Numbered from the stretch's first letter, positions 4,373 through 35,626 are shown. The stretch: DNA of 42,153 nucleotides from Rhodoferax sp. (GCA_031411175.1 JANOAP010000081.1:1-42153), one strand, 5' to 3'. Numbers and translations: made by a program. The notes: generated from the letters alone by a model not told the origin.

Positions 4373-4831
4373 TTATTGCTTGTACTTGGGCAACTGGTCG
4401 AACGGCGTTTTGCCATCGTCCACCTTGGGCTTGTCGGCGTCTGAGCCAAAGCTGTAGTTGGTGACCGGGCCTGAGCCGGCGCGTTCCTGCAGGGCTTCAA
4501 GCTCGTTCAGAATCCACACGTCGTGGATTTGTCCCTGCGGCGTGCGCGTGTAGTTCACGACCACGCGCGCGCCAACCATCTGGCCCGACATCACCAGCAT
4601 ATTGTTCAGGCCGCGAATGCGTGCACCAGGCGACAGCCGCTCGGCGTTTCCGTCGATCAGGATTTCAGGCGGGGTGAGGACTTCGAGGGTTCCCCTTCGC
4701 GCTGCGGGTGGGAACTGGCGCACGGTCATCTGGGCCGATGCAACAGACGGCAAAAGTGCCATCGTGGCGGCAGAAATACAGATGCCAATTGAAAAAAGAG
4801 GGAGCAGCAGGGAGCGCATGCAGCGATTCAT
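4373..4831 (-). CDS. Hypothetical secreted protein, 152 aa, with N-terminal signal peptide
   Basis: [35 protein letters not shown] is a signal peptide with an A-S-A site. The stop lies 13 nt upstream of the miaB start on the same strand. I recognise no domain. Confidence 0.6.
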
Positions 4832-5073
4832 GGTGTTTGTCCAGAGGCTGAAAAAGACATTTTAGATCAATCACTTACGACCATCTTCAAACAGCGGACC
4901 AAACTGCGGACCAGTAGCGCCAGTGACCCGTACCATGAGATCGCATTTTGGTGACAGGGCATTGTGTCGACTTGGCGTAGGCTTTGTCACCTTGGTATGA
5001 CCTTGTTTTTCGGCGCGACGAGGGCCCGTCAAGGTCAGATTTGCAGTGAAACGATCACAAAATGGAGACTCAC

Positions 5074-6225
5074 ATGACCAGCGTTTTAACCTTCCCTCGC
5101 ACCGTATTCCGCGAAGATCACGAGGCCTACCGCGACACTGTGCGCCGCTTTATTGACCGCGAATGCAAGCCCAAACAGGCCGAATGGGACAAGGCCGGCC
5201 GTGTGGACCGCGAGACCTGGCTCAAGGCCGGGCGCGAAGGCCTGCTGTGCACGTCGCAGGCCGAAGCGTGGGGCGGTGCTGGGGGCGACTTTGGCCACTG
5301 CGCCATTTTGATTGAAGAAATTTCGCGCTCAGGCATCAGCGGCCCCGGCTTTTACCTGCATTCCGACATCATTGCGCCGTACATTGAGCGCCTGGGTACC
5401 GAGGCGCAAAAGAAGCGCTGGCTGGCCTCATGTGCGCGGGGCGAGACCATCCTGGCGATTGCCATGAGCGAACCCGGCGCAGGCAGCGACCTGAAGGCGA
5501 TTCGCACCACGGCCATCCGCGATGGGGACGAGTACGTGATCAACGGCTCCAAAACCTTCATCTCCAACGGGCTCAATTGCGACCTGGTGGTGCTGGTGGC
5601 CAAGACCCAGCCAGAGCTGGGTGGCAAGGGCGTCTCGCTGATTCTGGTGGAGGCCGACCGGCCCGGTTTTCGCAAAGGCCGCAAACTTGAAAAAATGGGC
5701 CAGGAGGCGGCCGACACCGCCGAGCTGTTTTTTGAAGACGTGCGCGTGCCGGTGTCCAACCGGCTGGGTGAGGAGGGCCAGGGGTTTGCCTACCTCATGA
5801 AAGAGCTGGCGCAAGAGCGCTTCATCATTGCCATCAGCGCGGCGGCCAAGATCGAAGCCATGCTGGATGAGACCATCCGCTACACCAAGGAGCGCATGGT
5901 GTTTGGCAAGCCACTGTTTGATTTTCAGAACACGCGCTTCAAGCTGGCCGAGATCAAAACCCGCGCCACCGCCATGCGCATGATGGTGGACCAGTACCTG
6001 GCCGAGCACCTGCGCCGCAAGCTCACGCTGGAAGAGGCCGCCATCGCCAAGCTTTTTTGCACCGAAGAGCTGGGCAAATGCCTGGACGAGCTGCTGCAAC
6101 TCTATGGCGGCTATGGCTACATGATGGAATACCCGATCTGCCGCGCCTATGTGGATTCACGCGTGAACCGCATCTACGGCGGTACCAGCGAGGTCATGAA
6201 AGAGCTGATCTCGCGTAACCTGTAA
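5074..6225 (+). CDS. Acyl-CoA dehydrogenase, LCAD/IVD-like subtype
   Basis: GGAGA at 5064-5068 sits 5 nt before the ATG at 5074; the ORF-track ATG at 5062 has no RBS. ACAD fold throughout. The C-terminal motif is IYGGTSEVMKELISRNL, with Gly where MCAD-type enzymes carry the catalytic Glu, and LAQERF matches the LCAD helix-G position. Confidence 0.9.
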   Translation: MTSVLTFPRTVFREDHEAYRDTVRRFIDRECKPKQAEWDKAGRVDRETWLKAGREGLLCTSQAEAWGGAGGDFGHCAILIEEISRSGISGPGFYLHSDIIAPYIERLGTEAQKKRWLASCARGETILAIAMSEPGAGSDLKAIRTTAIRDGDEYVINGSKTFISNGLNCDLVVLVAKTQPELGGKGVSLILVEADRPGFRKGRKLEKMGQEAADTAELFFEDVRVPVSNRLGEEGQGFAYLMKELAQERFIIAISAAAKIEAMLDETIRYTKERMVFGKPLFDFQNTRFKLAEIKTRATAMRMMVDQYLAEHLRRKLTLEEAAIAKLFCTEELGKCLDELLQLYGGYGYMMEYPICRAYVDSRVNRIYGGTSEVMKELISRNL

Positions 6226-6261
6226 ACCGCAAGTGATACAACCAACTGACAGGAGAATTTC

Positions 6262-7176
6262 ATGGGCAATATGGTGAAAGACAAAGTCGTCGTGGTCACA
6301 GGCTCGGGGGGCGGCATTGGCCGCGACATCGCCCTGGCCATGGTGCGCGAGGGGGCCAAGGTGGTGGTGAATGACCTGGGCGCTTCGGTGTCGGGCGAAG
6401 GCAATGACGCAGGTCCGGCGCAAGCCGTGGTGAACGAGATCAAGGCGCTGGGCGGCGAGGCCGTTGCCAACACCGACAGCGTGTCGGATGCCACGGGCGC
6501 TGGCCGCATCATCCAGACCGCGCTGGACACCTTTGGCCGCATTGACGTGGTCGTCAACAACGCGGGCATTCTGCGTGACCGCTTCTTCCACAAGATGAGC
6601 GCGGACGAGTGGGATGCGGTCATCAAGGTCCACCTCTACGGCGCGTACTACGTCAGCCGCGCTGCGGCCACCCATTTCAAGGAACAGGGCTCGGGCAACT
6701 ACATCCACATGACCTCCACCTCAGGGCTGGTGGGCAACTTTGGGCAGGCCAACTACTCGGCGGCCAAGCTGGGTGTGATGGCGCTGTCCAAGTCCATCGC
6801 GCTGGACATGCAGAAGTTCAAGGTGCGTTCCAACTGCATTGCGCCGTTTGCCTGGAGCCGCATGATTGGCTCCATCCCCACGGACACCGATGCTGAAAAA
6901 GCGCGCGTGGAGCGCATCAAGCAGATGACCCCTGCCAAGATTGCCCCGCTGGCTGTGTGCCTGGCCAGCGATGCAGCGTCTGACACCAATGGCCAGATCT
7001 TTGCGGTGCGCAACAACGAAATCTTCCTGATGAGCCAGCCGCGCCCCGTGCGCTCGGTGCACCGCAGCGAGGGCTGGAGCCCCGAGACGGTGCTGAGCCA
7101 CGCGTTACCCGCATTGAAGGCCAGTTTCTATCCATTAGATCGCTCCGGCGATGTTTTCAGCTGGGACCCAATATGA
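6262..7176 (+). CDS. Short-chain dehydrogenase/reductase, MFE-2 / Hsd4A-like (3R)-hydroxyacyl-CoA dehydrogenase type
   Basis: AGGAG at 6251-6255. Contains TGSGGGIG (TGxxxGxG), NNAGILRD and GNFGQANYSAAK (YxxxK). The overall pattern matches the N-terminal dehydrogenase domain of peroxisomal multifunctional enzyme 2. Confidence 0.85.
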   Translation: MGNMVKDKVVVVTGSGGGIGRDIALAMVREGAKVVVNDLGASVSGEGNDAGPAQAVVNEIKALGGEAVANTDSVSDATGAGRIIQTALDTFGRIDVVVNNAGILRDRFFHKMSADEWDAVIKVHLYGAYYVSRAAATHFKEQGSGNYIHMTSTSGLVGNFGQANYSAAKLGVMALSKSIALDMQKFKVRSNCIAPFAWSRMIGSIPTDTDAEKARVERIKQMTPAKIAPLAVCLASDAASDTNGQIFAVRNNEIFLMSQPRPVRSVHRSEGWSPETVLSHALPALKASFYPLDRSGDVFSWDPI

Positions 7177-7598
7177 CAGACACCTCCAGCGCGCCACCCA
7201 CAGGCGTGCAAATTCAGCATCAGACAGCGCTCGATGCGGGCCGCTTCCTCATCCAGCATTGCGCGGCCTGTGGCAATCACGTGTACTTTCCGCGCGAGAT
7301 ATGCCCGCACTGTGGCGCTGGCGATCTGACCTGGGTAGAGCCCAGCGGTGTCGGCACGGTTTACGCCGTGACCACGGTGCGCCGCAAGGCGGATGCAGGC
7401 GGCGACTACAACGTGTCGCTGATTGACCTGGCCGAGGGTGTGCGCCTGATGAGCCGGGTGACCGACCTGGCCCCCGATGCCGTGCGCATTGGCCAGCAGG
7501 TCAGGGCGCGGGTTCAAATGCTTGAGGGTAAGGGCGTAATTGTGTTTGATGCCCCCACACAGCGTGCTAACCCTGCTATAAAAAAGGAAGCGTCATGA
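7173..7598 (+). CDS. DUF35-family protein (rubredoxin-like zinc ribbon plus OB fold), thiolase/aldolase partner subunit
   Basis: ATGA start/stop overlaps with both neighbours (7173-7176 and 7595-7598). Has CAAC...CPHC (Cx2C-x~14-Cx2C) followed by an OB-fold-like segment (VYAVTTV...LIDLAEGVRLMSRV). 141 aa. Confidence 0.85.
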   Translation: MTDTSSAPPTGVQIQHQTALDAGRFLIQHCAACGNHVYFPREICPHCGAGDLTWVEPSGVGTVYAVTTVRRKADAGGDYNVSLIDLAEGVRLMSRVTDLAPDAVRIGQQVRARVQMLEGKGVIVFDAPTQRANPAIKKEAS

Positions 7599-8785
7599 GT
7601 GTTGCATCGCCTTCAGGCCTGCGCGCCCTGCGCGGCAAGACCGCCATTGCCGGTGTGGCCACCTTCGGCTGTGGTGAAGCTCCCGGCTTCACCGACATGG
7701 AGTTGCTGGCCCGCTCGGCCCGCGCTGCGGTGGCCGATGCCGGGTTGAAGATGAGTGACATCGACGGCCTTTGCACGGCCAGTGTGGCATCCACCATGTG
7801 GCCCATGCCGGTCATCGAACACCTGGGGCTCAACCCCCGCTACATCGACGGAACCATGCTGGGCGGCTCCAGCTTTATTGCCCACCTGCTGCCTGCCATG
7901 CACGCGCTGCAATCCGGGCAATGCAATGCCGTGCTGGTCTGCTACGGCAGCGCTCAGCGCTCGGGTGTCTTCAGCCGGGCCGAGATTGCCCGCGCACGTC
8001 GGGCGCTGGACCCGCAGCCTTATGAGGCACCCTACGAGCCGATGATGCCGGTGTCAGCCTATGCGCTGGCCACGTCGCGCCACATGCACCAATACGGCAC
8101 CACGCGCCGCCAGCTGGCCGAGGTGGCGGTGGCCGCGCGCGGCTGGGCTCAGCTCAACCCTGAAGCTTTCATGCGAGACCCGCTGAGCATTGACGACGTG
8201 CTCAAGTCCCGCATGGTGTCAGACCCACTCTCGGTACGCGACTGCTGTCTGGTGACTGATGGCGGTGGTGCCTACGTGCTGGTGCGTGCCGACCGCGCCA
8301 AAGACCTGCCTCACAAACCCGTGTATATGCTGGGCAATGCCACCGCCGTGTGGAACCGGCAAATCTCCAGCATGCCCGACCTCACGGTCACTGCAGCCAC
8401 CCAGTCGGGCCGTGAGGCCTATGCTATGGCGGGCCTGTCGGCCCATGACATCAACGTGGTGCAGTTGTATGACGCGTTCACCATCAACACCCTGCTGTTT
8501 CTGGAAGACCTGGGCTTTTGCAAGAAAGGCGAGGGCGGCGCGTTTGTGGAAGGCGGTGCCATTGCACCGGGCGGCAAGCTGCCGGTGAACACCAACGGCG
8601 GCGGCTTGTCTTGCGTGCACCCCGGCATGTACGGCATCTTTGCGTTGATTGAGGCGGTGCGCCAGTTGCGTGGCGATTGCGGCGCGCGCCAGGTGGCGGG
8701 TGCGCAGACGGCCCTGGCGCATGGCAATGGCGGCACGCTGTCCAGCCAGGCCACCGCCATTCTGGGGACTGCCGAGGCGCTTTGA
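7595..8785 (+). CDS. Thiolase-fold protein of the SCP-x / lipid-transfer (Ltp) type lacking the catalytic cysteines; candidate retro-aldolase
   Basis: 396 aa with thiolase-superfamily architecture (NTNGGGLSCVHPGMYG loop). The nucleophile position reads TMLGGSSF, the HDCF position reads LYDAF and the C-terminal CxG position reads AHGNGG. It is translationally coupled to the DUF35 gene. Confidence 0.8.
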   Translation: MSVASPSGLRALRGKTAIAGVATFGCGEAPGFTDMELLARSARAAVADAGLKMSDIDGLCTASVASTMWPMPVIEHLGLNPRYIDGTMLGGSSFIAHLLPAMHALQSGQCNAVLVCYGSAQRSGVFSRAEIARARRALDPQPYEAPYEPMMPVSAYALATSRHMHQYGTTRRQLAEVAVAARGWAQLNPEAFMRDPLSIDDVLKSRMVSDPLSVRDCCLVTDGGGAYVLVRADRAKDLPHKPVYMLGNATAVWNRQISSMPDLTVTAATQSGREAYAMAGLSAHDINVVQLYDAFTINTLLFLEDLGFCKKGEGGAFVEGGAIAPGGKLPVNTNGGGLSCVHPGMYGIFALIEAVRQLRGDCGARQVAGAQTALAHGNGGTLSSQATAILGTAEAL

Positions 8786-8888
8786 AGGCCGTACCGGCTG
8801 AACCCGGTAACGGATCTGGTTACTATTAAATTGGTAGCTACTCAAGCACGTAGTACAAAGGCTACAGGCCTATTTGAAGGAGATTTTT

Positions 8889-10055
8889 GTGATTCGAGAC
8901 CCCGAAACCCTGTCTGCACTGCTGGACACCGTGAACCGCTTCGTGCGCGAGCGCCTGGTGCCTGCCGAAGCCCTGGTGGCCGAGACCGATGAGATCCCCC
9001 CGGACCTGGTGCAAGCCATGAAGGAAATGGGTCTGTTTGGCCTGACGGTGCCCGAGGAATACGGTGGCTTTGCGCTAACCATGGAAGAAGAAGTGATGGT
9101 CATGCTGGCCATGGGCCAGACCTCGCCCTGCTTTCGCTCGCTGTTTGGCACCACGGTGGGCATCGGCTCGCAGGGCATTGTGTTTGACGGCACACCGGAG
9201 CAAAAGGCCAAATACCTGCCACGCCTTGCCACCGGTGATCTGGTGGCATCTTTTGCATTGACCGAGCCCGATGCAGGCTCAGATGCCGCGTCGCTGCGCA
9301 CCACCGCCATCAAGGGCACGGACGCGGATGGCGAGCACTACATCGTCAACGGCACCAAGCGCTACATCACCAATGCGCCGCATGCCGGCATTTTCACGCT
9401 GATGGCGCGCACCAACCCGGCGGACAAGGGCGCGGGCGGTGTTTCGGCCTTCATCGTGGAAGCCAATACGCCCGGCATCACGATCGGCAAGGTCGATAAA
9501 AAAATGGGCCAGCGCGGCGCGCACACGGCGGACGTGATTTTTGAGAACTGCCGCGTACCGGCCAGCCAGCTCATGGGTGGCAGAGAGGGCCAGGGCTTCA
9601 AGACAGCGATGAAGGTGCTGGAAAAAGGCCGCATTCACATTGCCGCCATCTGTGTGGGCGTGGCCGAGCGCATGCAGCGCGACGCGTTGCACTACGCCAT
9701 GGAGCGCAAGCAGTTTGGCCAGCCCATCGCCGAGTTCCAGCTGGTGCAGGCCATGCTGGCTGACAGCCAGGCCGAGCTGTATGCCGCAAAGTGCATGGTG
9801 ATTGATGCTGCCCGCAAGCGGGATGAGGGGCTGAACGTGTCGACCGAGGCATCCTGCTGCAAGCTGTTTGCGTCCGAGATGTGTGGCCGCGTGGCCGACC
9901 GCGCGGTGCAGATTTTTGGTGGCGCAGGCTACCTCAGCGAATACGGCATTGAGCGGTTTTACCGCGACGTGCGCCTGTTTCGCCTGTACGAAGGCACCAG
10001 CCAGATTCAGCAGATTGTGATTGCGCGTAACCTGGTGCGTGAAGCCAGGCGCTGA
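8889..10055 (+). CDS. Acyl-CoA dehydrogenase, MCAD-type catalytic Glu
   Basis: GAAGGAG at 8876-8882 sits 6 nt before the GTG at 8889; the ORF-track start at 8874 is a TTG inside the RBS. The C-terminus LYEGTSQIQQIVIARNL carries the canonical YEGT catalytic Glu. Confidence 0.9.
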   Translation: MIRDPETLSALLDTVNRFVRERLVPAEALVAETDEIPPDLVQAMKEMGLFGLTVPEEYGGFALTMEEEVMVMLAMGQTSPCFRSLFGTTVGIGSQGIVFDGTPEQKAKYLPRLATGDLVASFALTEPDAGSDAASLRTTAIKGTDADGEHYIVNGTKRYITNAPHAGIFTLMARTNPADKGAGGVSAFIVEANTPGITIGKVDKKMGQRGAHTADVIFENCRVPASQLMGGREGQGFKTAMKVLEKGRIHIAAICVGVAERMQRDALHYAMERKQFGQPIAEFQLVQAMLADSQAELYAAKCMVIDAARKRDEGLNVSTEASCCKLFASEMCGRVADRAVQIFGGAGYLSEYGIERFYRDVRLFRLYEGTSQIQQIVIARNLVREARR

Positions 10056-10098
10056 TTCCCCCAGTTGGCCGCAACCCCGCCTTTTCTTGAAAGACCCC

Positions 10099-11070
10099 AT
10101 GAAGCCCACTTTCTCCCGCCGCACACTCATCACCTCTGCCGTCGCGCTGGCCTGCGGTAACGCGCTGGCGCAAGGCACGGCCTACCCGGCGCAAACTATC
10201 AAGCTGATCGTGCCTTACCCGGCAGGCGGCGCCACAGATGCGCTGGCTCGCATGGTGGGCCAGAAGCTGCAGGAGTCATGGAACGTGACGGTGGTGGTGG
10301 ACAACAAGCCCGGCGCGGGCGGCACCATCGGTAACAACCTGGTCGCCAAGGCCGCGCCAGACGGCTACACCGTGCTCATGGGCATCACCGCCATCATCCA
10401 GCAGCCCACACTGATGACCTTGCCCTACGATGCCGTCAAGGATTTCGCGCCGGTGACCCAGGTGGCCAGAAGCCCCAGCATGTTTGTGGTACCGCTCAGC
10501 TCGCCCGCCAGCACGCTGAAGGAATTTGTGGCTTTGGTCAAGGCCAACCCAGGCAAGTACAACTACGGCACTTACGGTGCGGGCACGTCATCGCACATTC
10601 AGGGCTCGCTGCTGAACCTGCAAGCCGGGCTGGACATGGTGCATGTGCCGTTTGCAGGGGCTGCGCCACTGGTCAACAACATGGTGGGGGGGCAACTGAC
10701 CTCGGCGTTTGTTGACATGGCTTCGGGCCGCGCGCACCTCAAGTCATTCAAGGCGCTGGCGGTGACGGGTACGCAGCGCTTGCCTGCCTTGCCGGACGCG
10801 CCCACGTTTCAAGAGCAGGGCTATCACTCGTTTGACCCCTATGGCTGGTTTGGCCTTTTCATGCCCGCTGCTACGTCCGGTGCTGTTGTCAACAAGTTCT
10901 CGGACGAAGTCAATCGCATCCTGCGCCTGCCCGACGTGGTGGCCCGCATTGAAGGTCTGGGCCTGTGGGTGGGTGGCGGCAAGCCTGAAGAGTTCGGGCA
11001 GATGGTGAAGTCCGATGCGGCGGTTTACGCGAAGATCATCAAAGACGCGGGTATCAAGTTGAGCCAATGA
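10099..11070 (+). CDS. Bug-family (TctC-like) tripartite tricarboxylate transporter periplasmic substrate-binding protein
   Basis: Trimmed to the ATG at 10099 (MKPTFSRRTLITSAVALACGNALA, an RR-containing signal). The mature N-terminus YPAQTIKLIVPYPAGGATD and NKPGAGG are Bug hallmarks. Confidence 0.9.
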   Translation: MKPTFSRRTLITSAVALACGNALAQGTAYPAQTIKLIVPYPAGGATDALARMVGQKLQESWNVTVVVDNKPGAGGTIGNNLVAKAAPDGYTVLMGITAIIQQPTLMTLPYDAVKDFAPVTQVARSPSMFVVPLSSPASTLKEFVALVKANPGKYNYGTYGAGTSSHIQGSLLNLQAGLDMVHVPFAGAAPLVNNMVGGQLTSAFVDMASGRAHLKSFKALAVTGTQRLPALPDAPTFQEQGYHSFDPYGWFGLFMPAATSGAVVNKFSDEVNRILRLPDVVARIEGLGLWVGGGKPEEFGQMVKSDAAVYAKIIKDAGIKLSQ

Positions 11071-12269
11071 TGACGCGAGCACTATTGCCCTATACCGGGC
11101 CCTACACCGGCCTGCGCATTCTGGACATGAGCCAGGGCATTGCAGGGCCTTACTGCGCGCAAATCCTGTGGCAGCAAGGGGCTGACGTTGTCAAGGTCGA
11201 ACCCCTGAGTGGCGACTGGGGCCGCTTTGTGGGGGTCGTGCGCGGCGAGCACAGTGCGCTGTCGATCCAGTTCAATGCAGGCAAGCGCAGCGTGGCGATT
11301 GATGGCCGGGGCGAGGCGGGCAGGGCGTTGCTGCACAGCATGGCGGTGCAGGCAGACATCATCGTGCAGAACTTTCGCCCCGGCGTGATGGAGCGCATGG
11401 GTCTGGGCTACGCGGCGCTGGCAGCCCGCAAGCCTGATCTGGTGTACGTATCGATCAGCGGCTATGGTCCCGATGGCCCCTATGCCGATGCGCCCGCGTC
11501 AGACTCTGTCATGCAGGCCGACAGTGGCCTGATGGTCACCAACCAGGACGCGCAGGGTCAGCCCCGGCGCGTTGGCATGCTGATGGCCGACGTGGTCACC
11601 GGTCTGTATGCGGCGCAGGCCACATCGGCTGCGCTGTACCAGCGGCTGGCCCGCAAGTTGGGTAGCCATGTGGAGGTGAGTCTTTTTGAAGCCTGTGCCT
11701 CGTTTCAGGGCGTCAATTTCCTGGAGCACGCGATGGCGGGCCAGCGCCCCTTTGGTGCCGTCAGTGCGCCTAACGGCGTGTTTGCCACGGCAGATGGTCA
11801 GATTACGCTGCTGGCCTTGAACAACGACCATTTCGCCCGTGTATGTCGGGCGCTGGAGCGACCTGCGTGGCTGGCCGATGCGCGCTTTGCCGACAATGTC
11901 TCCCGCATGGCGCATTGCGATGTGCTGCATCGCGCTATTGACGAGCTGCTGATGCAGCAACCCAGCGCCTTCTGGATGGCCCGCTTGCAGGCGCATGATG
12001 TGCTGCACGCCCCCGTTCGCGGGTTTGATGCTGTCATGGCGCATCCGCAGGCCACGCATCTGAACATGTTCACGCCCCTGGCGCAGCCCGGCTTTGTCAA
12101 TCTGCCCCACATGGGGTTGCCGGCCACGGTGTTTCGTCGTGAGGCACTGTATGCGCCGCGCATCGGCGAACATTCAGTGCAGGTACTGCTGGATGCCGGG
12201 CAAGACGGAGCGCACATTCAGCGACTCATTAACGCTGGCGTCGTCGCTCAGGCCCCGGCACTGGTGTGA
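11067..12269 (+). CDS. Family III CoA-transferase (CaiB/BaiF/Frc type)
   Basis: ATGA overlap with the upstream Bug gene. Has GLRILDMSQGIAGPYCAQILWQQGADVVKVEP, NFRPGVMERMGLGY and a conserved Asp region MLMADVVTG. Confidence 0.9.
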   Translation: MMTRALLPYTGPYTGLRILDMSQGIAGPYCAQILWQQGADVVKVEPLSGDWGRFVGVVRGEHSALSIQFNAGKRSVAIDGRGEAGRALLHSMAVQADIIVQNFRPGVMERMGLGYAALAARKPDLVYVSISGYGPDGPYADAPASDSVMQADSGLMVTNQDAQGQPRRVGMLMADVVTGLYAAQATSAALYQRLARKLGSHVEVSLFEACASFQGVNFLEHAMAGQRPFGAVSAPNGVFATADGQITLLALNNDHFARVCRALERPAWLADARFADNVSRMAHCDVLHRAIDELLMQQPSAFWMARLQAHDVLHAPVRGFDAVMAHPQATHLNMFTPLAQPGFVNLPHMGLPATVFRREALYAPRIGEHSVQVLLDAGQDGAHIQRLINAGVVAQAPALV

Positions 12270-12315
12270 GACTCTGGCTGACCCTATTTTTTGGCTTTAC
12301 TAGGAAATTTGAAAC

Positions 12316-13356
12316 ATGAACCACTATCGGAATCACCAACACAGCTTTTCCCTGCTTGGCCGACGTGCCCTTTCTCTTTCCTTTTCCTTGTCTTTGCCTC
12401 TTTGCCTGGGCGTGCTGGCGTTGATCAATGCAACCGGCGTGCAGGCGCAACCGGTTGGCTCCTACCCCTCCAAAACCATTCGCATGGTTGTGCCTTACCC
12501 GCCCGGTGGCCCTACCGATTTGACGGCGCGCTTGGTTGCCGTGGAGATGAGCAAGACGCTGGGTCAGACGATTATTGTGGACAACAAGGCCGGTGCCAGC
12601 GGCATGATTGGCGCTGAAATGGTGGCGCATGCCGAACCTGATGGCTACACCTTTCTGGCCAACGCGTCTTTGCATGTCATCAACCCCAGCATTTACCCCG
12701 ACATGCGGTTTGATGCGTTCAAGGACTTTGTGCCCATTACCCAGCTGGCTGCCGTGCCGCTGGTGCTGGTGGTGCCTGCCAGCTCACCCATCAGATCCCT
12801 GAAAGACCTGGTCGAATATGGCAAGAAAAATCCTGCCAAGCTGAGTTTTGCGTCCGCGGGCAATGCATCGTCGCAGCAGCTTGCCGGTGAGTCATTCAAG
12901 ATTGCGGCGGGTATCGACATGCAGCACGTGCCTTACAAAGGCAGTGCACCCGCGTTGACCGATGTGATCGGTGGGCAGGTGCAGCTCATGTTTGACTCCA
13001 TGCCATCGGCCATGCCGTTCATCAAGTCCGGCAAGCTGCGTGCGCTGGCCGTCACCACCGAAAAGCGGGCGCAGGCATTGCCTGATTTACCCACCATTGC
13101 CGAGTCGGGCTACCCTGGTTTTGACATCAGTACCTGGTACGGCTTCTGGGCCCCTAAAGGCACACCCGCTCCCATCGTGGCCAAGCTGGCAGAAGCCGCA
13201 GCACGGGCTTTGAAAGTGCCGCAAATTGTGGATCAATACGGCGGCATGGGCGCGGAACCGGTGGGTTCCACGCCCGCCGAGTTCGCCCGCTACAACACGA
13301 CCGAGGGCGTGAAGTGGGCCGACATTGTGCGCAAGTCAGGTGCTAAGGCAAACTGA
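12316..13356 (+). CDS. Bug-family (TctC-like) periplasmic substrate-binding protein
   Basis: Long RR-containing signal (LLGRRALSLSFSLSLPLCLGVLALINATGVQA). Mature YPSKTIRMVVPYPPGGPTD and NKAGASG. Confidence 0.9.
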   Translation: MNHYRNHQHSFSLLGRRALSLSFSLSLPLCLGVLALINATGVQAQPVGSYPSKTIRMVVPYPPGGPTDLTARLVAVEMSKTLGQTIIVDNKAGASGMIGAEMVAHAEPDGYTFLANASLHVINPSIYPDMRFDAFKDFVPITQLAAVPLVLVVPASSPIRSLKDLVEYGKKNPAKLSFASAGNASSQQLAGESFKIAAGIDMQHVPYKGSAPALTDVIGGQVQLMFDSMPSAMPFIKSGKLRALAVTTEKRAQALPDLPTIAESGYPGFDISTWYGFWAPKGTPAPIVAKLAEAAARALKVPQIVDQYGGMGAEPVGSTPAEFARYNTTEGVKWADIVRKSGAKAN

Positions 13357-13410
13357 AGCAGTTCATCACGCCGAAACTCAATACGTTTCAAACAACAGGA
13401 GACCCACACC

Positions 13411-14409
13411 ATGTTCCCATTTCAGTCACGTCTTCAAACACCACTGTCATCGCGCCGCCGTGCGCTTGCCAAAGGCTTGTTGGGGTGGGCGGCGCTGGTT
13501 CCTCTGAGCGCTTTGGCGCAGTCCCCCCAGACCATCAAGCTCGTTGTCGGCTATGCCGCCGGTGGCCCGGTGGATGCGGCGGCACGGCTGTTTGCACCTG
13601 CTTTCGCCAAGGAGCTGGGCCAGCCCGTGGTGGTGGAGAACCGCCCCGGCGCGGGCGGTGCCATGGGAGGTGACTCGGTGGCCAAGGCGGTGCCCAACGG
13701 CTTGCTGATCTTCTTTGCAGCCAGCCCCACCATGACGATCAGCCCGCACATCCTCAAGTCCATGCCGTTTGACCCGGCCAAAGACGTGACGCCGGTGGCA
13801 CCGATCCTGAGCTATTCCAATGTGCTGGTGGTCAACAAAGACCAAGCTTTCAGGACGGTGCCCGAGCTGGTGGCCTACGCCAAGGCCAACCCGGCCAAGG
13901 TGGCGTATGGCTCGGCAGGAATGGGGGCATCCAACCACCTCAGCGGTGAGCTTTTTGCGGCCCGCACTGGCACCCAACTCACCCACGTGCCTTACAAAGG
14001 CAACGCCCCGGCCATGACGGACGTGATTGGTGGCCAGATCAACATGATGTTTGACATCATCGGCAGCGCCCGCAACTACGTTGCATCAGGCCGTGTGCGC
14101 GCTGTGGCAGTGACCTCGCGTGAGCGCAACGCATCCATGCCGGATGTACCCACCATGCGCGAGGCAGGCATTGCCGATTACGAGGTGGGCGGCTGGTACG
14201 GCTTGTATGGCCCGGCCAGGCTCCCCGCCGACATTGTGGCCCGCTACAACGAAGCTACGCGCAAGGCGCTGGCCAGTGACGAGTTGAAGAGCCGGCTGAT
14301 CGAACAGGGCTACGACTTGTGGACTGGCTCGCCCCAGATGCTCGCTGAGCGCGCTGCCCGCGAGCTGTCGCTGTGGGCCACCGTGACCAAGGGCATTCAG
14401 GTGGAGTAG
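13411..14409 (+). CDS. Bug-family (TctC-like) periplasmic substrate-binding protein
   Basis: AGGAG at 13396-13400. RRR-containing signal (PLSSRRRALAKGLLGWAALVPLSALA). Mature QTIKLVVGYAAGGPVD and NRPGAGG. Confidence 0.9.
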   Translation: MFPFQSRLQTPLSSRRRALAKGLLGWAALVPLSALAQSPQTIKLVVGYAAGGPVDAAARLFAPAFAKELGQPVVVENRPGAGGAMGGDSVAKAVPNGLLIFFAASPTMTISPHILKSMPFDPAKDVTPVAPILSYSNVLVVNKDQAFRTVPELVAYAKANPAKVAYGSAGMGASNHLSGELFAARTGTQLTHVPYKGNAPAMTDVIGGQINMMFDIIGSARNYVASGRVRAVAVTSRERNASMPDVPTMREAGIADYEVGGWYGLYGPARLPADIVARYNEATRKALASDELKSRLIEQGYDLWTGSPQMLAERAARELSLWATVTKGIQVE

Positions 14410-14429
14410 GGCGGCTAAGAATAAAGCGT

Positions 14430-14912
14430 TTAATTCAGCGTGGCAGCCAGCGCCGCAAGCTGGTCGGTGGCAATGCCCCAGCCTTCGTGAAACCCCATCT
14501 TCTCGTGGGCGGCGCAATCCTCAGCCGTCCAGTGGCGCGCCCGCGCGATGTAGCGGGTTTGGCCGCCTTCCTCCTCAAACGTCAGGATGCCGGTGAAGAA
14601 CGGTTTGCCCGACGGCACCCATGCCGAGGTGTAGGCGTCGGTGAAGACGATGCGCTCGTTTTTCACCACCTCAAGGTAAATGCCGAGGTTGGGCACCTTC
14701 GTGCCGTCGGGGCCCTGCATGGTGATGCAGCTGGAACCACCGGCGCGCACATCAATCTCAGCGGCGATGGTTTTCCAGGGCGGCGGCGTGAACCATTGCG
14801 TGATGAGCGCCGGCTCGGTCCAGCAGCGAAACAGCTTGGCGCGCGGCACGTTGATCAGGCGGTTGACGACGAGTTCGTGGACGGCAGTGGCGTCGGGTGC
14901 TGGCAGGCCCAT
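14430..14912 (-). CDS. SRPBCC-superfamily protein (AHSA1 / activator of Hsp90 ATPase homolog-like domain)
   Basis: 160 aa. NRLINVPRAKLFRCWTEPALITQWFTPPPW...FEEEGGQTRY...HEKMGFHEGWGIATDQLAAL is the typical AHSA1/SRPBCC pattern. Confidence 0.75.
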   Translation of the reverse strand: MGLPAPDATAVHELVVNRLINVPRAKLFRCWTEPALITQWFTPPPWKTIAAEIDVRAGGSSCITMQGPDGTKVPNLGIYLEVVKNERIVFTDAYTSAWVPSGKPFFTGILTFEEEGGQTRYIARARHWTAEDCAAHEKMGFHEGWGIATDQLAALAATLN

Positions 14913-15043
14913 GGTGGTGCTTCCTTCTAAAAGACTTGGTATTGGTGGGTGCCCAGCACGTTGGGACTATATCTACCGACGATGGGGTGTCAAGCTGGCG
15001 TCGGGCGCTCGGTGGACACATTGCTTCTCACACCTGCACACCA

Positions 15044-15083
15044 GAAAGCAAAAAGCCATTCAGGCATTTGGCATGAAAGGCTT
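15044..15083 (-). terminator. Rho-independent terminator downstream of the tRNA
   Basis: Minus-strand RNA reads AAGCC-U-UUCA-U-GC[CAAAU]GC-C-UGAA-U-GGCUU followed by UUUUGCUUUCU. That is 11 bp in three helical segments, a 5-nt loop and a U-rich tail, starting 12 nt after the tRNA 3' end. Confidence 0.6.
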
Positions 15084-15094
15084 CTTTGAAAATC

Positions 15095-15171
15095 TGGTGG
15101 TGATAGGTGGATTTGAACCACCGACATCAGCATTATGAATGCTGCGCTCTAACCAACTGAGCTATATCACC
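15095..15171 (-). tRNA. tRNA with CAU anticodon: elongator tRNA-Met, or tRNA-Ile2 if lysidine-modified; not an initiator
   Basis: Reverse complement: GGTGATA TA GCTC AGTTGGTTA GAGC G CAGCA TTCATAA TGCTG ATGTC GGTGG TTCAAAT CCACC TATCACC A CCA. It forms a perfect cloverleaf with an encoded CCA. G1-C72 is paired and there is no GGG/CCC anticodon stem, so it is not tRNA-fMet. Confidence 0.9.
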
Positions 15172-15182
15172 GTAAGCCCAAG

Positions 15183-15188
15183 ATTATA
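15183..15188 (-). promoter_or_regulatory. Candidate -10 hexamer (TATAAT) for the tRNA gene
   Basis: The minus strand reads ...ctgccaaatcggTATAATcttgggcttac followed by the tRNA 5' end. It is a perfect -10 hexamer 11 nt upstream of the mature 5' end, with no convincing -35. Confidence 0.3.
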
Positions 15189-15230
15189 CCGATTTGGCAG
15201 CCCGGCCCACTTCGGCTTATTCGTTTCGCG

Positions 15231-16025
15231 TTACTGGTGGGTGAATGCAGCCTTGCGCTTGTTCACAAACGCATCCATGCCTTCCTTCTGGTCCGCCGTA
15301 GAGAACAGCGCATGGAACACGCGGCGTTCAAACATGATGCCGTCAGACAGGGTGCCTTCAAAGGAACGGTTAACGGTTTCCTTGGCTGCCATCACGGCGA
15401 TTTGTGAGTAATCACTGATCATGAGCGCCGCGCCCAACGCCTCTTCCATGAGTTTGTCCAGGGGCACAACGCGGCTGACCAGCCCGGCACGCTCGGCCTC
15501 GGTAGCGTCCATCATGCGGCCGGTCAGGGCCAGGTCCATGGCTTTGGCCTTTCCCACGGCGCGCGGCAGACGCTGGGTGCCGCCTGCGCCGGGGATGATC
15601 CCCAACTTGATTTCGGGTTGGCCAAATTTGGCGTTGTCGGCGGCGATGATGAAGTCGCACATCATGGCGAGCTCGCAGCCACCCCCCAGCGCAAAGCCGC
15701 TCACCGCTGCAATCACGGGCTTGCGCACGCTGCGAATGGTCTCCCAGTTGCGGGTGATGTAGTCCCCCTTGTACACATCGGCAAAAGTGTAGGTGGCCAT
15801 GGCGCCGATGTCGGCACCGGCGGCAAAGGCTTTCTCATTGCCGGTAATGATCATGCAGCCAATGGCGGCATCCGCGTCAAACGCCTTGAGCGCATTGCCC
15901 AGCTCGGTCATCAGTTGCTCGTTCAAGGCATTGAGTTGCTTGGGGCGGTTCAGGGTGACGATGCCGACCTTGCCGCCTTCGGTGCGGACCGTGATCAGTT
16001 CATAAGTCTTTTGTGCTTCAGCCAT
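15231..16025 (-). CDS. Enoyl-CoA hydratase (crotonase family, ECHS1/PaaF-like)
   Basis: 264 aa. Has [57 protein letters not shown] and both catalytic Glu contexts. It is divergent from paaG. Confidence 0.9.
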
Positions 16026-16120
16026 ATCGTTCTCCGGTTTCAGGGTTGAAGGTTGACTATAACGAACCCCACACAGACCCTACTCAAGGGAAATCAGGGG
16101 GCACAATGGCATGCAAATTA

Positions 16121-16137
16121 ACCGACCGCTCGGTCGG
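16121..16137. promoter_or_regulatory. Palindromic operator candidate (PaaR/TetR-type) in the crotonase / paaG divergent region
   Basis: ACCGACCGCTCGGTCGG has 7-bp arms ccgaccg/cggtcgg around a 2-nt centre. The core fits ACCG-N2-CG-N2-CGGT and lies ~45 nt upstream of the paaG ATG. Confidence 0.4.
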
Positions 16138-16179
16138 GAGATGGTAAATTGTTGAAAATTCTTGAAAGTACCTACCGAA

Positions 16180-16974
16180 ATGACCGACTCCACCGTTCTG
16201 TATTCCGACCTGGGCAGCGTTGCCGTTGTCACGCTCAACCGGCCTCAGGCCCTGAACAGCTTCACCCGCCAGATGCACCACGACTTATGGGCTGCACTGG
16301 ACCAGGCCGAGGCCAACCCGTTGATCCGTGGCCTGGTCATCACCGGTGCCGGGCGAGCCTTCTGCGCGGGCGCTGACCTGGCGGAGTTTGACTTCGCACC
16401 CGGCCCTAACCGAATCGCCCGTGCCGACCCGGGGCCAGTCATTGACCAGGCATTCAACCCCACTGCGCGCCGCCTTCAAAACCTGCGCATGCCCACGGTG
16501 GCCGCCGTGAATGGCGTGGCGGCAGGTGCAGGTGCCTCATTTGCGTTGGGGTGTGACATCGTGATTGCGGCGCCCACCGCCAGCTTTATTCAGGCGTTCA
16601 GCAAGATTGGGCTGATCCCCGATGCGGGCGGTACCTGGCTGATGACCGAGCGTCTCGGCCTGGCCCGTGCCATGGCTTTGTCCATGACGGGCGACAAGCT
16701 GGGCGCAGCGCAGGCCAAAGAGTGGGGAATGATCTGGGATGTTGCTGACGACTGCGTGGCAGCGGCGACGGGCATGGCCCAACGCCTGGCGACCATGCCC
16801 ACCAAAGCGCTGGTGGCAACGCGCCACATTTTGCAGGGCAGCACGACACGCACGTTTAACCAGCAGCTCGACGTAGAGCGGGACACCCAGTCGGCCATGG
16901 GCAAAACCCATGATTATTTTGAAGGTGTCGCTGCGTTTCTTGAAAAACGGGCACCCCAATTCAAAGGGGAGTGA
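16180..16974 (+). CDS. paaG: 1,2-epoxyphenylacetyl-CoA isomerase PaaG (crotonase family)
   Basis: Trimmed from the TTG at 16162 to the ATG at 16180 (MTDSTVLYSDLGSVAVVTLNRPQALNSF...TGAGRAFCAGADL). It is followed directly by paaI and paaK. Confidence 0.8.
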   Translation: MTDSTVLYSDLGSVAVVTLNRPQALNSFTRQMHHDLWAALDQAEANPLIRGLVITGAGRAFCAGADLAEFDFAPGPNRIARADPGPVIDQAFNPTARRLQNLRMPTVAAVNGVAAGAGASFALGCDIVIAAPTASFIQAFSKIGLIPDAGGTWLMTERLGLARAMALSMTGDKLGAAQAKEWGMIWDVADDCVAAATGMAQRLATMPTKALVATRHILQGSTTRTFNQQLDVERDTQSAMGKTHDYFEGVAAFLEKRAPQFKGE

Positions 16975-16977
16975 GGT

Positions 16978-17412
16978 ATGGATGCTTTGGCTCTGGCCCA
17001 AAAAGTGGGGCAAACCATGTTCGCCGCAGACATTGCCTCCAAAGACACCATGGGCATGGAACTGTTGGGTTGTGAGCCGGGCCGAGCCACCATGCGCATG
17101 ACGGTGCAGCCGCTGCACCTGAACGGCCACCAGATTTGCCACGGTGGTTTTATCTTCACGCTGGCCGATTCAACATTTGCGTTTGCCTGCAACAGCCATA
17201 ACAAAAGCGCCGTGGCAGCCGGGTGCAGCATTGAGTTTCTCAAGCCCGGGCAGTTGGGCGATGTGCTGACCTGTGAAGGCATTGAGCAAACCCTGCTAGG
17301 CCGGCATGGCATTTACGACATGCGGGTGATCAACCAGCGCGGCGAAGTCATTGCCATGTTTCGCGGCAAGAGTGCACAAATTCAGGGCAGCGTGATTCCG
17401 GAATCATCATGA
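16978..17412 (+). CDS. paaI: Hydroxyphenylacetyl-CoA thioesterase PaaI (hotdog fold)
   Basis: 144 aa. HLNGHQICHGGFIFTLADSTFAFACN is the typical PaaI pattern. It sits between paaG and paaK. Confidence 0.85.
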   Translation: MDALALAQKVGQTMFAADIASKDTMGMELLGCEPGRATMRMTVQPLHLNGHQICHGGFIFTLADSTFAFACNSHNKSAVAAGCSIEFLKPGQLGDVLTCEGIEQTLLGRHGIYDMRVINQRGEVIAMFRGKSAQIQGSVIPESS

Positions 17413-18722
17413 ACCCTATGGCGACCAAAAACTTCCCGCTGGACCCCATTGAAAAAGCCAGTGTCGATGAGCTGCGCGCCCTGCAGTTGAAGCGGCTCAA
17501 ATCAACGCTGCAGCACGCTTACGCCAATTCGCCGGTGTACCGAAAGAAATTTGATGCTGCAGGTGTGCATCCGGATGATTGCAATTCGCTGGCTGATCTG
17601 GCGAAATTTCCGTTCACCACCAAGAAATATTTGCGCGACAGCTACCCCTATGGCATGTTTGCCGTGCCGCGTGAACAATGCGCGCGCATTCACGCGTCCA
17701 GCGGCACCACGGGCAAGCCTACCGTGGTGGGCTACACCAAAAACGACATCGATATGTGGGCCAACATGGTGGCACGCAGCATTCGGGCAGGTGGGGCCAG
17801 ACCGGGCGATCTGGTGCATGTGTCTTATGGTTATGGTTTGTTTACCGGCGGGCTGGGCGCGCACTACGGGGCTGAAAAACTGGGTTTGACCGTCGTGCCG
17901 TTTGGCGGTGGCCAGACTGAGCGGCAAGTGCAGTTGATTGCGGATTTCAAGCCCGACATCATCATGGTCACGCCCAGCTACATGCTGGCCATTGCCGAGG
18001 AGTTTGAACGCCAGGGTTTGAACCCGGCGGAGTCTTCATTGCGCGTGGGTATTTTTGGCGCGGAACCGTGGACCAATGACATGCGGGTGAACATTGAGCA
18101 GCGCATGGCGATCGACGCGGTGGATATCTATGGGTTGAGCGAAGTCATTGGCCCCGGTGTGGCCAGCGAGTGCCTGGAAACCAAGGATGGCCCCACCCTC
18201 TGGGAAGATCATTTTTACCCTGAAATCATCGACGCCCAAACCGGTGAGCTGATGCCCGACGGTGAGATGGGCGAGCTGGTGTTTACCAGCCTCACCAAGG
18301 AGGCCTTGCCCATCATCCGCTACCGCACCCGCGATCTCACGCGGCTGTTGCCAGGCACAGCGCGTACCATGCGGCGAATGGAAAAAATCACTGGCCGCAG
18401 CGATGACATGATGATCGTGCGGGGTGTGAATGTTTTCCCCACGCAGATTGAAGAACTGATCTTGAAGCGTGCCGAACTTGCGCCGCATTACCAGTGCATC
18501 CTGCGCCGCGAAGGCGTGATGGATGGCCTGCTGGTACTGGTGGAAACGCGTGCTGGCGTCATGCCAGAGAGCCTGGAAGCGCGGGCTGCCGCTAGGCAGC
18601 TTCAACATGACATCAAGGCCTATGTGGGCACCAGTGTCGAGATTGAGCTGCGCGCCGCGGGCGGTGTTGAGCGCAGCGTGGGCAAGGCCAAGCGGGTTGT
18701 TGACCAGCGGGGCGGATGCTAA
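17409..18722 (+). CDS. paaK: Phenylacetate-CoA ligase PaaK
   Basis: 437 aa with an ATGA overlap with paaI. Has IHASSGTTGKPTVVGYT (AMP-binding P-loop), the PaaK-type N-terminus LDPIEKASVDELRALQLKRLK, and ITGRSDDMMIVRGVNVFP. Confidence 0.92.
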   Translation: MNPMATKNFPLDPIEKASVDELRALQLKRLKSTLQHAYANSPVYRKKFDAAGVHPDDCNSLADLAKFPFTTKKYLRDSYPYGMFAVPREQCARIHASSGTTGKPTVVGYTKNDIDMWANMVARSIRAGGARPGDLVHVSYGYGLFTGGLGAHYGAEKLGLTVVPFGGGQTERQVQLIADFKPDIIMVTPSYMLAIAEEFERQGLNPAESSLRVGIFGAEPWTNDMRVNIEQRMAIDAVDIYGLSEVIGPGVASECLETKDGPTLWEDHFYPEIIDAQTGELMPDGEMGELVFTSLTKEALPIIRYRTRDLTRLLPGTARTMRRMEKITGRSDDMMIVRGVNVFPTQIEELILKRAELAPHYQCILRREGVMDGLLVLVETRAGVMPESLEARAAARQLQHDIKAYVGTSVEIELRAAGGVERSVGKAKRVVDQRGGC

Positions 18723-32720: not shown

Positions 32721-32742
32721 ACTGATCAAAACCGCATAGCCC

Positions 32743-33273: not shown

Positions 33274-33294
33274 GTCAATCGTGAAGGCCTCATC

Positions 33295-35589: not shown

Positions 35590-35626
35590 CTCGTTTTCAA
35601 TGTCATTCGCAGGAGTGCACGAATCC

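Follow-up and report, generated by a model that had tools for sequence, protein, structure and literature searches.

A DUF35-paired thiolase-fold protein without catalytic cysteines from Rhodoferax sp. is a predicted non-covalent C–C lyase

The 42,153-nucleotide (nt) window of Rhodoferax sp. analysed here (GCA_031411175.1, JANOAP010000081.1:1-42153) contains a pair of overlapping genes that encode a standalone DUF35 protein and a thiolase-fold protein in which the catalytic cysteines of thiolases have been replaced. The complex of the two is predicted from sequence to be a non-covalent C–C lyase, most likely a retro-aldolase acting on a 3-hydroxyacyl-coenzyme A (CoA), an assignment held with somewhat less than even confidence. 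We infer that the bond beside the CoA thioester is cleaved without a covalent intermediate, and by analogy retro-aldol cleavage would be the best-precedented reaction. The substrate is not a steroid. An earlier note on the same DNA had proposed a probable Ltp2-type retro-aldolase rather than a thiolase; the exclusion of a canonical thiolase and the closeness to aldolases bear this reading out in part, whereas the Ltp2 type does not hold.

Active-site columns and clade of the thiolase-fold protein

The thiolase-like product matches the Pfam model Thiolase_C_1 (E 2.6e-72), with no Pfam match to Thiolase_N, and scores 685.2 bits against the NCBIfam model NF004811/PRK06158 ('acetyl-CoA acetyltransferase', cutoff 421). 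Thiolases are characterised by five fingerprints, namely CxS (Cys89), VMG, NEAF (HDCF in SCP2-thiolases), GHP (His348) and CxG (Cys378) (PMC3406046). The motifs read in the Rhodoferax protein are TMLGGSSF (residues 87–94), LYDAF (291–295), CVHPGMYG (340–347) and AHGNGG (375–380). In HMMER alignments to solved structures Gly91 lies opposite Gly89 of CtSal, a residue that has been placed equivalently to the nucleophilic Cys of SCP2-thiolases (PMC12329534), and the weak match to FabH sets Cys112 of that enzyme on the same column. Tyr292-Asp-Ala294-Phe is aligned with Y302-D-C304-Y of CtSal and Y294-D-H296-F of TcLtp2, with Ala294 in the column of the HDCF cysteine. As Gly391 of CtSal is aligned with Gly380, the counterpart of Z. 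ramigera Cys378 would be Asn378. The GHP histidine of thiolases is kept in His342-Pro343.

Each of the three positions at which thiolases have cysteine carries another residue (Gly91, Ala294 and Asn378), and because this affects every catalytic cysteine column a canonical thiolase is ruled out. On these alignments an acyl-cysteine intermediate and a cysteine acid/base would both be impossible, and since no acyl-enzyme could form, the protein would not be a ping-pong thiolase. The predicted enolate-stabilising parts, on the other hand, are kept, namely His342, the backbone NH groups of Gly91 and Gly380, and the DCC segment for CoA pantetheine. By motif register, DCC presumably matches the pantetheine-binding NAS (Ser247) segment of the Z. 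ramigera enzyme. Cys217/Cys218 of DCC were considered as an alternative nucleophile and rejected, the motif being present in the aldolase Ltp2 as well. The earlier note had read the nucleophile column as free of Cys, the HDCF motif as LYDAF with Tyr292 and CxG as AHGNGG; all three readings are confirmed at the positions given above, with Gly91 at the nucleophile column, where no relative checked has Cys, and Asn378 in the last cysteine column. Its CVHPGMYG loop is likewise present, but the tyrosine that it numbered 345 is Tyr346.

A homologue search found at least 8,000 proteins at E <= 1e-30, and after clustering at 50% identity 1,329 representatives reach this threshold. Conservation was followed in a diverse set of 106 sequences (the query and the 105 best full-length 50%-identity representatives, 37–58% identical to it) and in an orthologue set of 81 distinct genome loci (56–86% overall identity). 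Across the diverse set, the nucleophile column holds Gly in 100 of 106 relatives and Cys in none, Asp293 is invariant (106/106), Tyr292 is found in 95 and His342 in 81. His342 is also present in 80 of the 81 orthologues, while GG, YDAF and DCC each occur at all 81 loci, none of which has a nucleophilic Cys. Position 346 is Tyr in only 10 of the 106 diverse relatives, with Phe, Leu, Asn and Arg occurring in the close clade; of the 81 orthologues, 78 have Tyr there and three have Phe. Judged by this distribution, the loss of the catalytic cysteine is ancient and selected, and no accident of one lineage. Close homologues (85–93% identity) were found in Rhodoferax, Hydrogenophaga and other Comamonadaceae, and further relatives in Beta-, Alpha- and Gammaproteobacteria, including Pseudomonas aeruginosa, and in Actinobacteria. 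Databases name these relatives 'thiolase' or 'acetyl-CoA acetyltransferase'.

Among solved structures, the best sequence match is 4U4E (E 1.8e-113), an unpublished 'putative thiolase' of Sphaerobacter thermophilus with GGSSF, YDSF and HPGMYG. It is followed by the aldolases CtSal (9MYR_A, E 1.8e-57) and TcLtp2 (6OK1_A, E 8.1e-52), BbsB (7PXP_C, E 3.7e-38) and an SCP2-thiolase (6HSJ_A, E 8.4e-34). Foldseek, run with an AlphaFold2 model of the protein (predicted local distance difference test, pLDDT, 85.9; predicted template modelling score, pTM, 0.90), ranked 4U4E, Sal–Shy(DUF35) and Ltp2–ChsH2(DUF35) ahead of true thiolases, the Trypanosoma brucei SLP (TbSLP), BbsB and PhlC. The E values for Sal (1.3e-38) and Ltp2 (3.0e-36) were better than that of any true thiolase, and template modelling (TM) scores of 0.77–0.87 to thiolases indicate that the thiolase fold is present. 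By sequence and modelled fold, the DUF35-dependent retro-aldolases CtSal and TcLtp2 come out as the nearest characterised relatives. A rough neighbour-joining tree, built from the representatives and three partial PDB sequences copied from HMMER output, contains three clades, those of CtSal, of TcLtp2 and of the query with 4U4E. The CtSal clade is marked by YDC[YF] and FGQ, the TcLtp2 clade by a GHP loop that lacks three residues and by Tyr or His in the key column, and the query/4U4E clade by GG, YD[AS]F and HPGM. On this tree the query belongs to a third clade (PRK06158/4U4E) beside Sal and Ltp2 and is no Ltp2 orthologue.

In TcLtp2 the base is Tyr294 and the acid Tyr344, and CtSal uses Tyr302 and Cys304, with Gln352 at the Tyr344 position (PMC12329534). 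Tyr292 shares its column with the catalytic bases Tyr294 and Tyr302. However, Ltp2 Tyr344 and Sal Gln352 fall on His342 in every alignment and not on Tyr346, which is aligned with Ltp2 His346, and the equivalence of Tyr346 to Ltp2 Tyr344 was therefore rejected. The earlier note had seen two tyrosines at the Ltp2 positions. Tyr292 does correspond to Tyr294, but the numerical match (292/346 versus 294/344) is only half right, because Tyr344 aligns with His342 and Tyr346 is poorly kept among diverse relatives. Similarly, the label 'Ltp2-type' is refuted by His342 in the Tyr344 column, by Ala294 in place of Ltp2 His296 and by the separate clade. Given its retention in the orthologues, Tyr346 may still have a local catalytic role within the subfamily. 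The predicted active site is a third arrangement, with Tyr292, His342 and Ala294, no Cys and no second homologous Tyr.

The DUF35 partner and the gene neighbourhood

The DUF35 product matches Pfam zf-ChsH2 (PF12172, E 7.8e-13) and OB_ChsH2_C (PF01796, E 2.6e-17), both above cutoff, which confirms the 141-residue protein with a CAAC...CPHC ribbon and an OB fold described earlier. The family matches of both products are strong and well above chance level. Its zinc ribbon comprises Cys30/Cys33 (CAAC) and Cys44/Cys47 (CPHC; nt 7260–7313), and it matches the DUF35 chains of Shy (9myr_B, E 9.3e-15) and ChsH2 (6ok1_B, E 9.6e-15). The four ribbon cysteines are kept in only about 54–55 of 78 DUF35 orthologues (L001–L082), with Ser, Thr, Ala or Glu in the others, and zinc binding therefore seems dispensable in part of the family. 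Of the 81 loci, 77 have a same-strand DUF35 gene directly upstream of the thiolase-like gene, and a further one has it downstream. Further, natural DUF35–linker–thiolase-like fusions exist, among them P0065 (539 residues, 969 member sequences), P0069 and others of about 540 residues that are 84–85% identical to the query; the linker has about 30 residues and is rich in Pro, Ala and Ser. These fusions are Rosetta-stone evidence predicting a physical complex, and that the thiolase-like protein needs or has a DUF35 partner is supported by gene order and fusion alike. The assembly is probably α2β2, as in Sal–Shy(DUF35) and Ltp2–ChsH2(DUF35). A standalone DUF35 protein with a Cys-less aldolase has a precedent in chsH4-atf1 of M. 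neoaurum (PMC10398937).

The thiolase-like ATG (7595), preceded by a GGAAG Shine–Dalgarno sequence, overlaps the DUF35 TGA (7596–7598) as ATGA at 7595–7598, so both open reading frames (ORFs) and the coupling that the earlier note had reported stand. The stop codon of the preceding short-chain dehydrogenase/reductase (SDR) gene and the DUF35 start overlap in the same way (ATGA, 7173–7176), and it is therefore three genes, not two, that are translationally coupled. The double coupling points to a complex of fixed stoichiometry, comparable to the archaeal assembly of thiolase, DUF35 and reductase. By its sequence matches to 2et6, a (3R)-hydroxyacyl-CoA dehydrogenase (E 1.9e-102), and to 1gz6 and 1zbq, the rat and human 17beta-HSD4 (E ~1e-62), the SDR is unmistakably an MFE-2-type (3R)-hydroxyacyl-CoA dehydrogenase. 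The positions of these genes and of the active-site codons are collected in Table 1.

Table 1. Genes and active-site codons of the gene run (positions counted from the first nucleotide of the window)
Feature	Position	Strand	Assigned from
Acyl-CoA dehydrogenase, opens the gene run	5062..6225	+	Pfam Acyl-CoA_dh_N/M/1, best E 7.5e-42
MFE-2-type (3R)-hydroxyacyl-CoA dehydrogenase (SDR)	6262..7176	+	PDB sequence matches
Standalone DUF35 subunit, 141 aa, Cys4 zinc ribbon and OB fold	7173..7598	+	Pfam
Thiolase-fold protein, 396 aa, without catalytic cysteines, candidate C–C lyase	7595..8785	+	NCBIfam, PDB, AlphaFold2, Foldseek
Codons Gly90-Gly91; Gly91 in the thiolase nucleophilic Cys column	7862..7867	+	Alignment
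Codons Tyr292-Asp293-Ala294-Phe295, NEAF/HDCF fingerprint column	8468..8479	+	Alignment
Codons His342-Pro-Gly-Met-Tyr346, retained thiolase GHP loop	8618..8632	+	Alignment
Second acyl-CoA dehydrogenase	8874..10055	+	Pfam Acyl-CoA_dh domains, E 5.4e-49
TctC/Bug-family periplasmic solute receptor	10021..11070	+	Pfam TctC, E 2.3e-62
Family III CoA-transferase (CaiB/BaiF type)	11067..12269	+	Pfam CoA_transf_3, E 2.2e-100
TctC/Bug-family receptor	12316..13356	+	Pfam TctC, E 2.1e-81
TctC/Bug-family receptor	13411..14409	+	Pfam TctC, E 2.1e-71

The + strand run from 5062 to 14409 comprises nine genes, including three TctC receptors and two acyl-CoA dehydrogenases. Its gene content resembles that of a beta-oxidation-like pathway by which a non-steroid carboxylic acid, perhaps a dicarboxylate or branched, is imported and broken down, with the family III CoA-transferase as the probable activator of the substrate. 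No steroid ring-degradation genes were found among the window ORFs scanned, in agreement with the earlier note, and no MaoC gene either. A promoter and terminator scan of 4400–15300 gave counts at chance level, and operon boundaries were not obtained from it. The first TctC ORF, with its mechanically assigned TTG start, overlaps the end of the preceding dehydrogenase gene by 35 nt; because its Pfam TctC match opens at residue 76, the true start is probably farther downstream.

In other genomes, neighbouring genes at the 81 loci were identified within 10 kb of the pair by a heuristic gene caller weighted by third-position GC content (GC3) and by tblastn, so that the counts vary with the tblastn thresholds chosen; where 66 is the denominator, the loci counted are those with 15 kb of sequence or more. 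An orthologous SDR (at least 58% identity) was found at 23 of 81 loci. Double-hotdog MaoC hydratase-2 occurs at 25/66 loci, FadB-type hydratase/dehydrogenase at 10/66, ScoAB-type 3-oxoacid CoA-transferase at 11–12/66, acyl-CoA carboxylase subunits at 5–8/66, ADP-forming acyl-CoA synthetase at 13/66, AMP-forming ligase at 23/66 and aldehyde dehydrogenase at 4–8/66. Family III CoA-transferases turn up again in related loci, and in several loci PimCD-like heteromeric acyl-CoA dehydrogenase pairs lie beside the DUF35/thiolase-like pair. In Comamonadaceae-type loci an orthologue of the second dehydrogenase (74–88% identity) directly follows the pair, and locus L006 has an 81% identical copy of the first one 5 kb upstream of it. 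Rhodoferax ferrireducens repeats the SDR–DUF35–thiolase-like triplet among different neighbours.

Two annotated clusters agree with these counts. A Roseovarius plasmid combines OB-fold and thiolase genes with MaoC, three CaiB-type transferases, acyl-CoA dehydrogenases and hydratases. In P. aeruginosa (NZ_CP131792.1, 476066-497205), a 63% identical orthologue belongs to an IclR-regulated cluster adjoining wapB. Besides IclR and the OB-fold protein, this cluster encodes MaoC, two acyl-CoA dehydrogenases, a hydratase and the orthologous SDR, together with an ADP-forming acyl-CoA synthetase (acetate-CoA-ligase family), a PaaI thioesterase, an NADH:quinone reductase and an MFS transporter. It would correspond to PA1015–PA1024 with pauA (pimeloyl-CoA synthetase), which would hint at dicarboxylate catabolism and offer a genetically tractable model; no useful literature was found on these genes or on AzeR. 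The thiolase-like protein sits in the 'thiolase slot' of otherwise complete beta-oxidation clusters.

At four loci from Pollutimonas, Bordetella petrii and Noviherbaspirillum (L012, L022, L024 and L025), the pair follows genes for a TctC receptor, a carboxyltransferase, a biotin carboxylase and a FadB-type enzyme, and genes for a ScoAB-like 3-oxoacid CoA-transferase lie close by. By analogy, this layout resembles Liu/Atu-type handling of beta-branched acyl-CoA, which needs a retro-aldol step of the HMG-CoA-lyase type.

Two published gene sets were compared with the pair. Cupriavidus H16_A1526-A1531 was considered as a DUF35/thiolase pair and dropped, as the papers describe a fusion of enoyl-CoA hydratase with 3-hydroxyacyl-CoA dehydrogenase (ECH-3HCDH), along with a ketothiolase and an acyl-CoA dehydrogenase. 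A random-barcode transposon sequencing (RB-TnSeq) study of dicarboxylate catabolism in beta-proteobacteria does not mention DUF35/OB-fold proteins, and its 'thiolase' ABZR87_RS12575, picked by a thiolase Pfam model (E 5e-65), looks canonical (PMC12543098).

The remainder of the window contains housekeeping genes, a small group of paa-like genes and a Pil-Chp cluster. In the paa-like group (15231–18722), two enoyl-CoA hydratases of the crotonase family lie on opposite strands and are accompanied by a thioesterase of 4HBT/PaaI type and a PaaK-like ligase (AMP-binding_C_2). The group was rejected as part of the pair's module and treated as a separate unit because it is not co-conserved with the pair in other genomes. 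The chemosensory cluster of Pil-Chp type (31957–41530) is complete, with two single-domain response regulators (PilG/PilH-like), a PilI-like CheW, a PilJ-type methyl-accepting chemotaxis protein (764 aa) and a ChpA-like kinase of 2000 aa, in which at least three stretches matched Hpt, beside HATPase, CheW and receiver domains. On the minus strand, 764–2950 encodes a 728-aa protein with many TPR repeats and a GT41 (O-GlcNAc-transferase-like) glycosyltransferase domain, flanked by a truncated ffh (SRP54) and miaB.

Candidate reactions of the pair

As a retro-aldolase, the pair would act through Tyr292, which would take the proton from the 3-hydroxyl group of a 3-hydroxyacyl-CoA. The C2–C3 bond would then break to give an aldehyde or ketone and the enolate of acetyl- or propionyl-CoA. 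His342 would hold this enolate in place, and candidates for the proton donor are His342 itself, Tyr346 and water. That Tyr292 is the residue proven as base in Sal and Ltp2 counts in favour of this reaction. Loci with carboxylase subunits, ScoAB, PimCD-like dehydrogenases and aldehyde dehydrogenases are compatible with a lyase that acts on tertiary or otherwise blocked alcohols.

Several observations, however, weigh against the aldolase. The second catalytic residue of both characterised aldolases is absent, His342 standing for Ltp2 Tyr344 and Ala294 for Sal Cys304. A (3R)-hydroxyacyl-CoA dehydrogenase is coupled upstream, where it would compete for the aldolase substrate or make an aldolase unnecessary; a plain 3-hydroxyacyl-CoA aldolase would not require such a coupled enzyme, and the context therefore complicates the assignment. 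SDRs, MaoC hydratase-2 and FadB-type enzymes recur beside the pair, and aldehyde dehydrogenases are rare, although they would be needed after retro-aldol cleavage of a secondary alcohol. Further, no FadA/PhaA-type thiolase was found within 10 kb at any of the 81 loci by a motif search that would miss the SCP2 type. Finally, a literature search gave no paper on 4U4E, and members of its clade have no recorded activity. A mixed scheme in which aldolase and dehydrogenase share one 3-hydroxyacyl-CoA is possible by analogy with mycobacterial Atf1 and the MFE-2-type dehydrogenase Hsd4A, which are rivals for one 3-hydroxyacyl-CoA (PMC10398937).

Cysteine-independent cleavage of a 3-oxoacyl-CoA, although rather unlikely, stays a serious competitor because of the SDR coupling, the thiolase slot, the few aldehyde dehydrogenases and the archaeal DUF35 staple. 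The substrate would be supplied by the coupled (3R)-hydroxyacyl-CoA dehydrogenase and no acyl-enzyme would form. Either the CoA thiolate would attack directly, as in a one-step thiolase, or water would, as in a retro-Claisen hydrolase that releases acetyl-CoA and a free acid to be re-activated by CoA-transferases or ligases, several of which are present at a number of loci. The oxyanion hole for the thioester would be built from Tyr292 and His342, as it is from the His/His pair in SCP2-thiolases. In peroxisomes an SCP2-type thiolase follows the MFE-2 dehydrogenase, and in the Rhodoferax run the two ATGA overlaps join an MFE-2-type SDR to DUF35 and the thiolase-like gene. The pair comes directly after FadB-type hydratase/dehydrogenases in L012 and L024, and the P. 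aeruginosa and Roseovarius clusters have dehydrogenases and hydratases (with the SDR in P. aeruginosa) and no other annotated thiolase. The empty search for FadA/PhaA-type thiolases points the same way, but a thiolase may be encoded elsewhere in the genome or be of the SCP2 type. An archaeal DUF35 protein staples thiolase, ketoacyl-CoA reductase and MaoC dehydratase together in one complex (bioRxiv 10.1101/2024.07.05.601840). Yet an orthologous SDR is present within 10 kb at only 23 of 81 loci, and in both characterised relatives, which are aldolases, the Tyr-for-His swap accompanies the Cys loss. The mechanism would also lack precedent in the superfamily, as we know of no thiolase-superfamily enzyme that cleaves a 3-oxoacyl thioester without a nucleophilic cysteine. 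A touch more doubtful is the broader proposal that the PRK06158/4U4E clade with DUF35 would supply the 'thiolase' missing from an MFE-2-type beta-oxidation module widespread in bacteria, performing Cys-free 3-oxoacyl-CoA cleavage.

The retained oxyanion-hole elements together with the lost cysteines would also suit other enolate chemistry that leaves the main carbon chain uncut, for example decarboxylation of a malonyl-type or otherwise carboxylated acyl-CoA, or synthesis by a condensation of aldol or Claisen type; we consider this improbable. TbSLP structures are close fold matches (Foldseek E ~1e-30), and the sole reported activity of this Cys-less T. brucei protein is malonyl-CoA decarboxylation (PMC12329534); some loci have biotin carboxylase and carboxyltransferase genes, and the TctC receptors suggest carboxylate-rich substrates. 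However, the TbSLP activity is very low (kcat 0.005 s-1), and later authors suspect an aldolase (PMC12329534). Further, carboxylase genes are confined to 5–8 of 66 loci, and the catabolic setting of acyl-CoA dehydrogenases, CoA-transferase and uptake receptors speaks against biosynthesis. Slightly less probable again is a catalytically dead pair that merely organises a dehydrogenase, a hydratase or a CoA-binding site. Such a scaffold would agree with the loss of all canonical catalytic cysteines, with the service of DUF35 proteins as molecular staples and with MsTLP1, a Cys-less thiolase-like protein that has no thiolase activity and no assigned function (PMC3406046). However, the invariance of GG, YDAF, HPGM and DCC across 81 orthologues of 56–86% identity is typical of a functioning active site, and both characterised Cys-less relatives are efficient enzymes (PMC12329534). 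Least of all do we expect an ordinary thiolase or a true orthologue of the steroid side-chain aldolases Ltp2 and Sal, both of which are highly improbable. The database names argue for the one and homology to Ltp2 and Sal for the other. Against the thiolase stand the lack of Cys at any catalytic column and the missing Thiolase_N match; indeed, the name 'acetyl-CoA acetyltransferase' of NF004811 is contradicted by that family's own active site. Against the orthologue stand the loss of Ltp2 Tyr344 and His296 and of Sal Cys304, the separate clade and the lack of steroid genes in the window.

The assignment matters beyond this locus. Metabolic reconstructions that count clade members as thiolases assign a reaction that the active site cannot carry out in the known way. 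If the retro-aldolase is real, thiolase-fold retro-aldol chemistry reaches into general carboxylic-acid catabolism and offers new C–C lyases for biocatalysis; if 3-oxoacyl-CoA is cleaved instead, a textbook reaction has a new mechanism. A crystal structure of a homologue (4U4E) exists, and both genes are small and co-expressible.

Comparison with known systems

Cys-less thiolase-fold lyases with a DUF35 partner are known as a kind. No paper was found on the active-site arrangement of the present clade, on its non-steroid beta-oxidation context or on the coupling to an MFE-2 dehydrogenase. The only characterised Cys-less relatives are two steroid side-chain aldolases, whereas the query clade occurs in non-steroid, beta-oxidation-like operons. 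The closest solved protein, 4U4E, is in the same clade, is about 50% identical in the Foldseek alignment and has the matching fingerprints GGSSF, YDSF and HPGMYG.

The second-best solved match in sequence and fold, CtSal–CtShy(DUF35), is the bile-acid side-chain aldolase of Comamonas testosteroni (9MYR; PMC12329534). It has the thiolase fold, Gly89 in the place of Gly91, Tyr302 of its YDxx motif in that of Tyr292, the oxyanion Gly391 in that of Gly380, and a DUF35 partner, which is obligate in CtSal. However, its essential acid Cys304 (YDCY) is Ala294 here, Gln352 is the thiolase histidine His342 and Gln347 is Gly337. The DUF35 of CtSal forms one chain with a MaoC hydratase, and its zinc site is of the C3H1 type, in contrast to the standalone Cys4 protein of Rhodoferax. 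The steroid setting is absent here, and the two thiolase-fold proteins are about 35% identical and in separate clades.

TcLtp2/Mtb Ltp2–ChsH2(DUF35), the steroid C3 side-chain retro-aldolase (6OK1), is the third-best solved match. It is a Cys-less thiolase fold with a Tyr base in YDxF (Tyr294, equivalent to Tyr292), the DCC motif and a DUF35 partner. It differs in its general acid, Tyr344, for which the query has His342, in His296 (Ala294 here), in a deletion of two to three residues in its GHP loop and in overall sequence (about 31% identity). Further, its DUF35 domain is fused to the MaoC hydratase ChsH2 in an igr/steroid operon and is not a separate protein of 141 aa. In the operon of the Sal-like aldolase Atf1–ChsH4 (M. 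neoaurum / MSMEG_6561), a standalone DUF35 protein of about 140 aa accompanies a Cys-less thiolase-fold lyase and an oxidoreductase (PMC10398937). Atf1, however, is of the Sal type (56% identical to Sal1) and acts on sterol side chains, and its partner reductase uses the aldehyde product and is not of the MFE-2 type.

Among enzymes that retain their cysteines, the SCP2-type thiolases (the benzoylsuccinyl-CoA thiolase BbsAB, peroxisomal SCPx and archaeal complexes) belong to the same Thiolase_C_1 fold subfamily, and BbsA and the archaeal complexes supply a DUF35 subunit. The bbs operon likewise has a family III CoA-transferase, an acyl-CoA dehydrogenase and an SDR, then DUF35 and thiolase, and the peroxisomal system has an MFE-2-type dehydrogenase upstream. 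In these enzymes the nucleophilic Cys and that of HDCF are both retained and catalysis follows the acyl-enzyme route, in contrast to Gly91 and YDAF here. T. brucei SLP (5AB4-7) and M. smegmatis TLP1 (4EGV) resemble the query in their nucleophile-column Gly and in Tyr at the NEAF/HDCF column (YDCF, YSCF). They differ from it in keeping the Cys of that motif and in that no separate DUF35 gene partner is described for them; TLP1 also has no GHP histidine, is monomeric and carries an extra beta-barrel domain.

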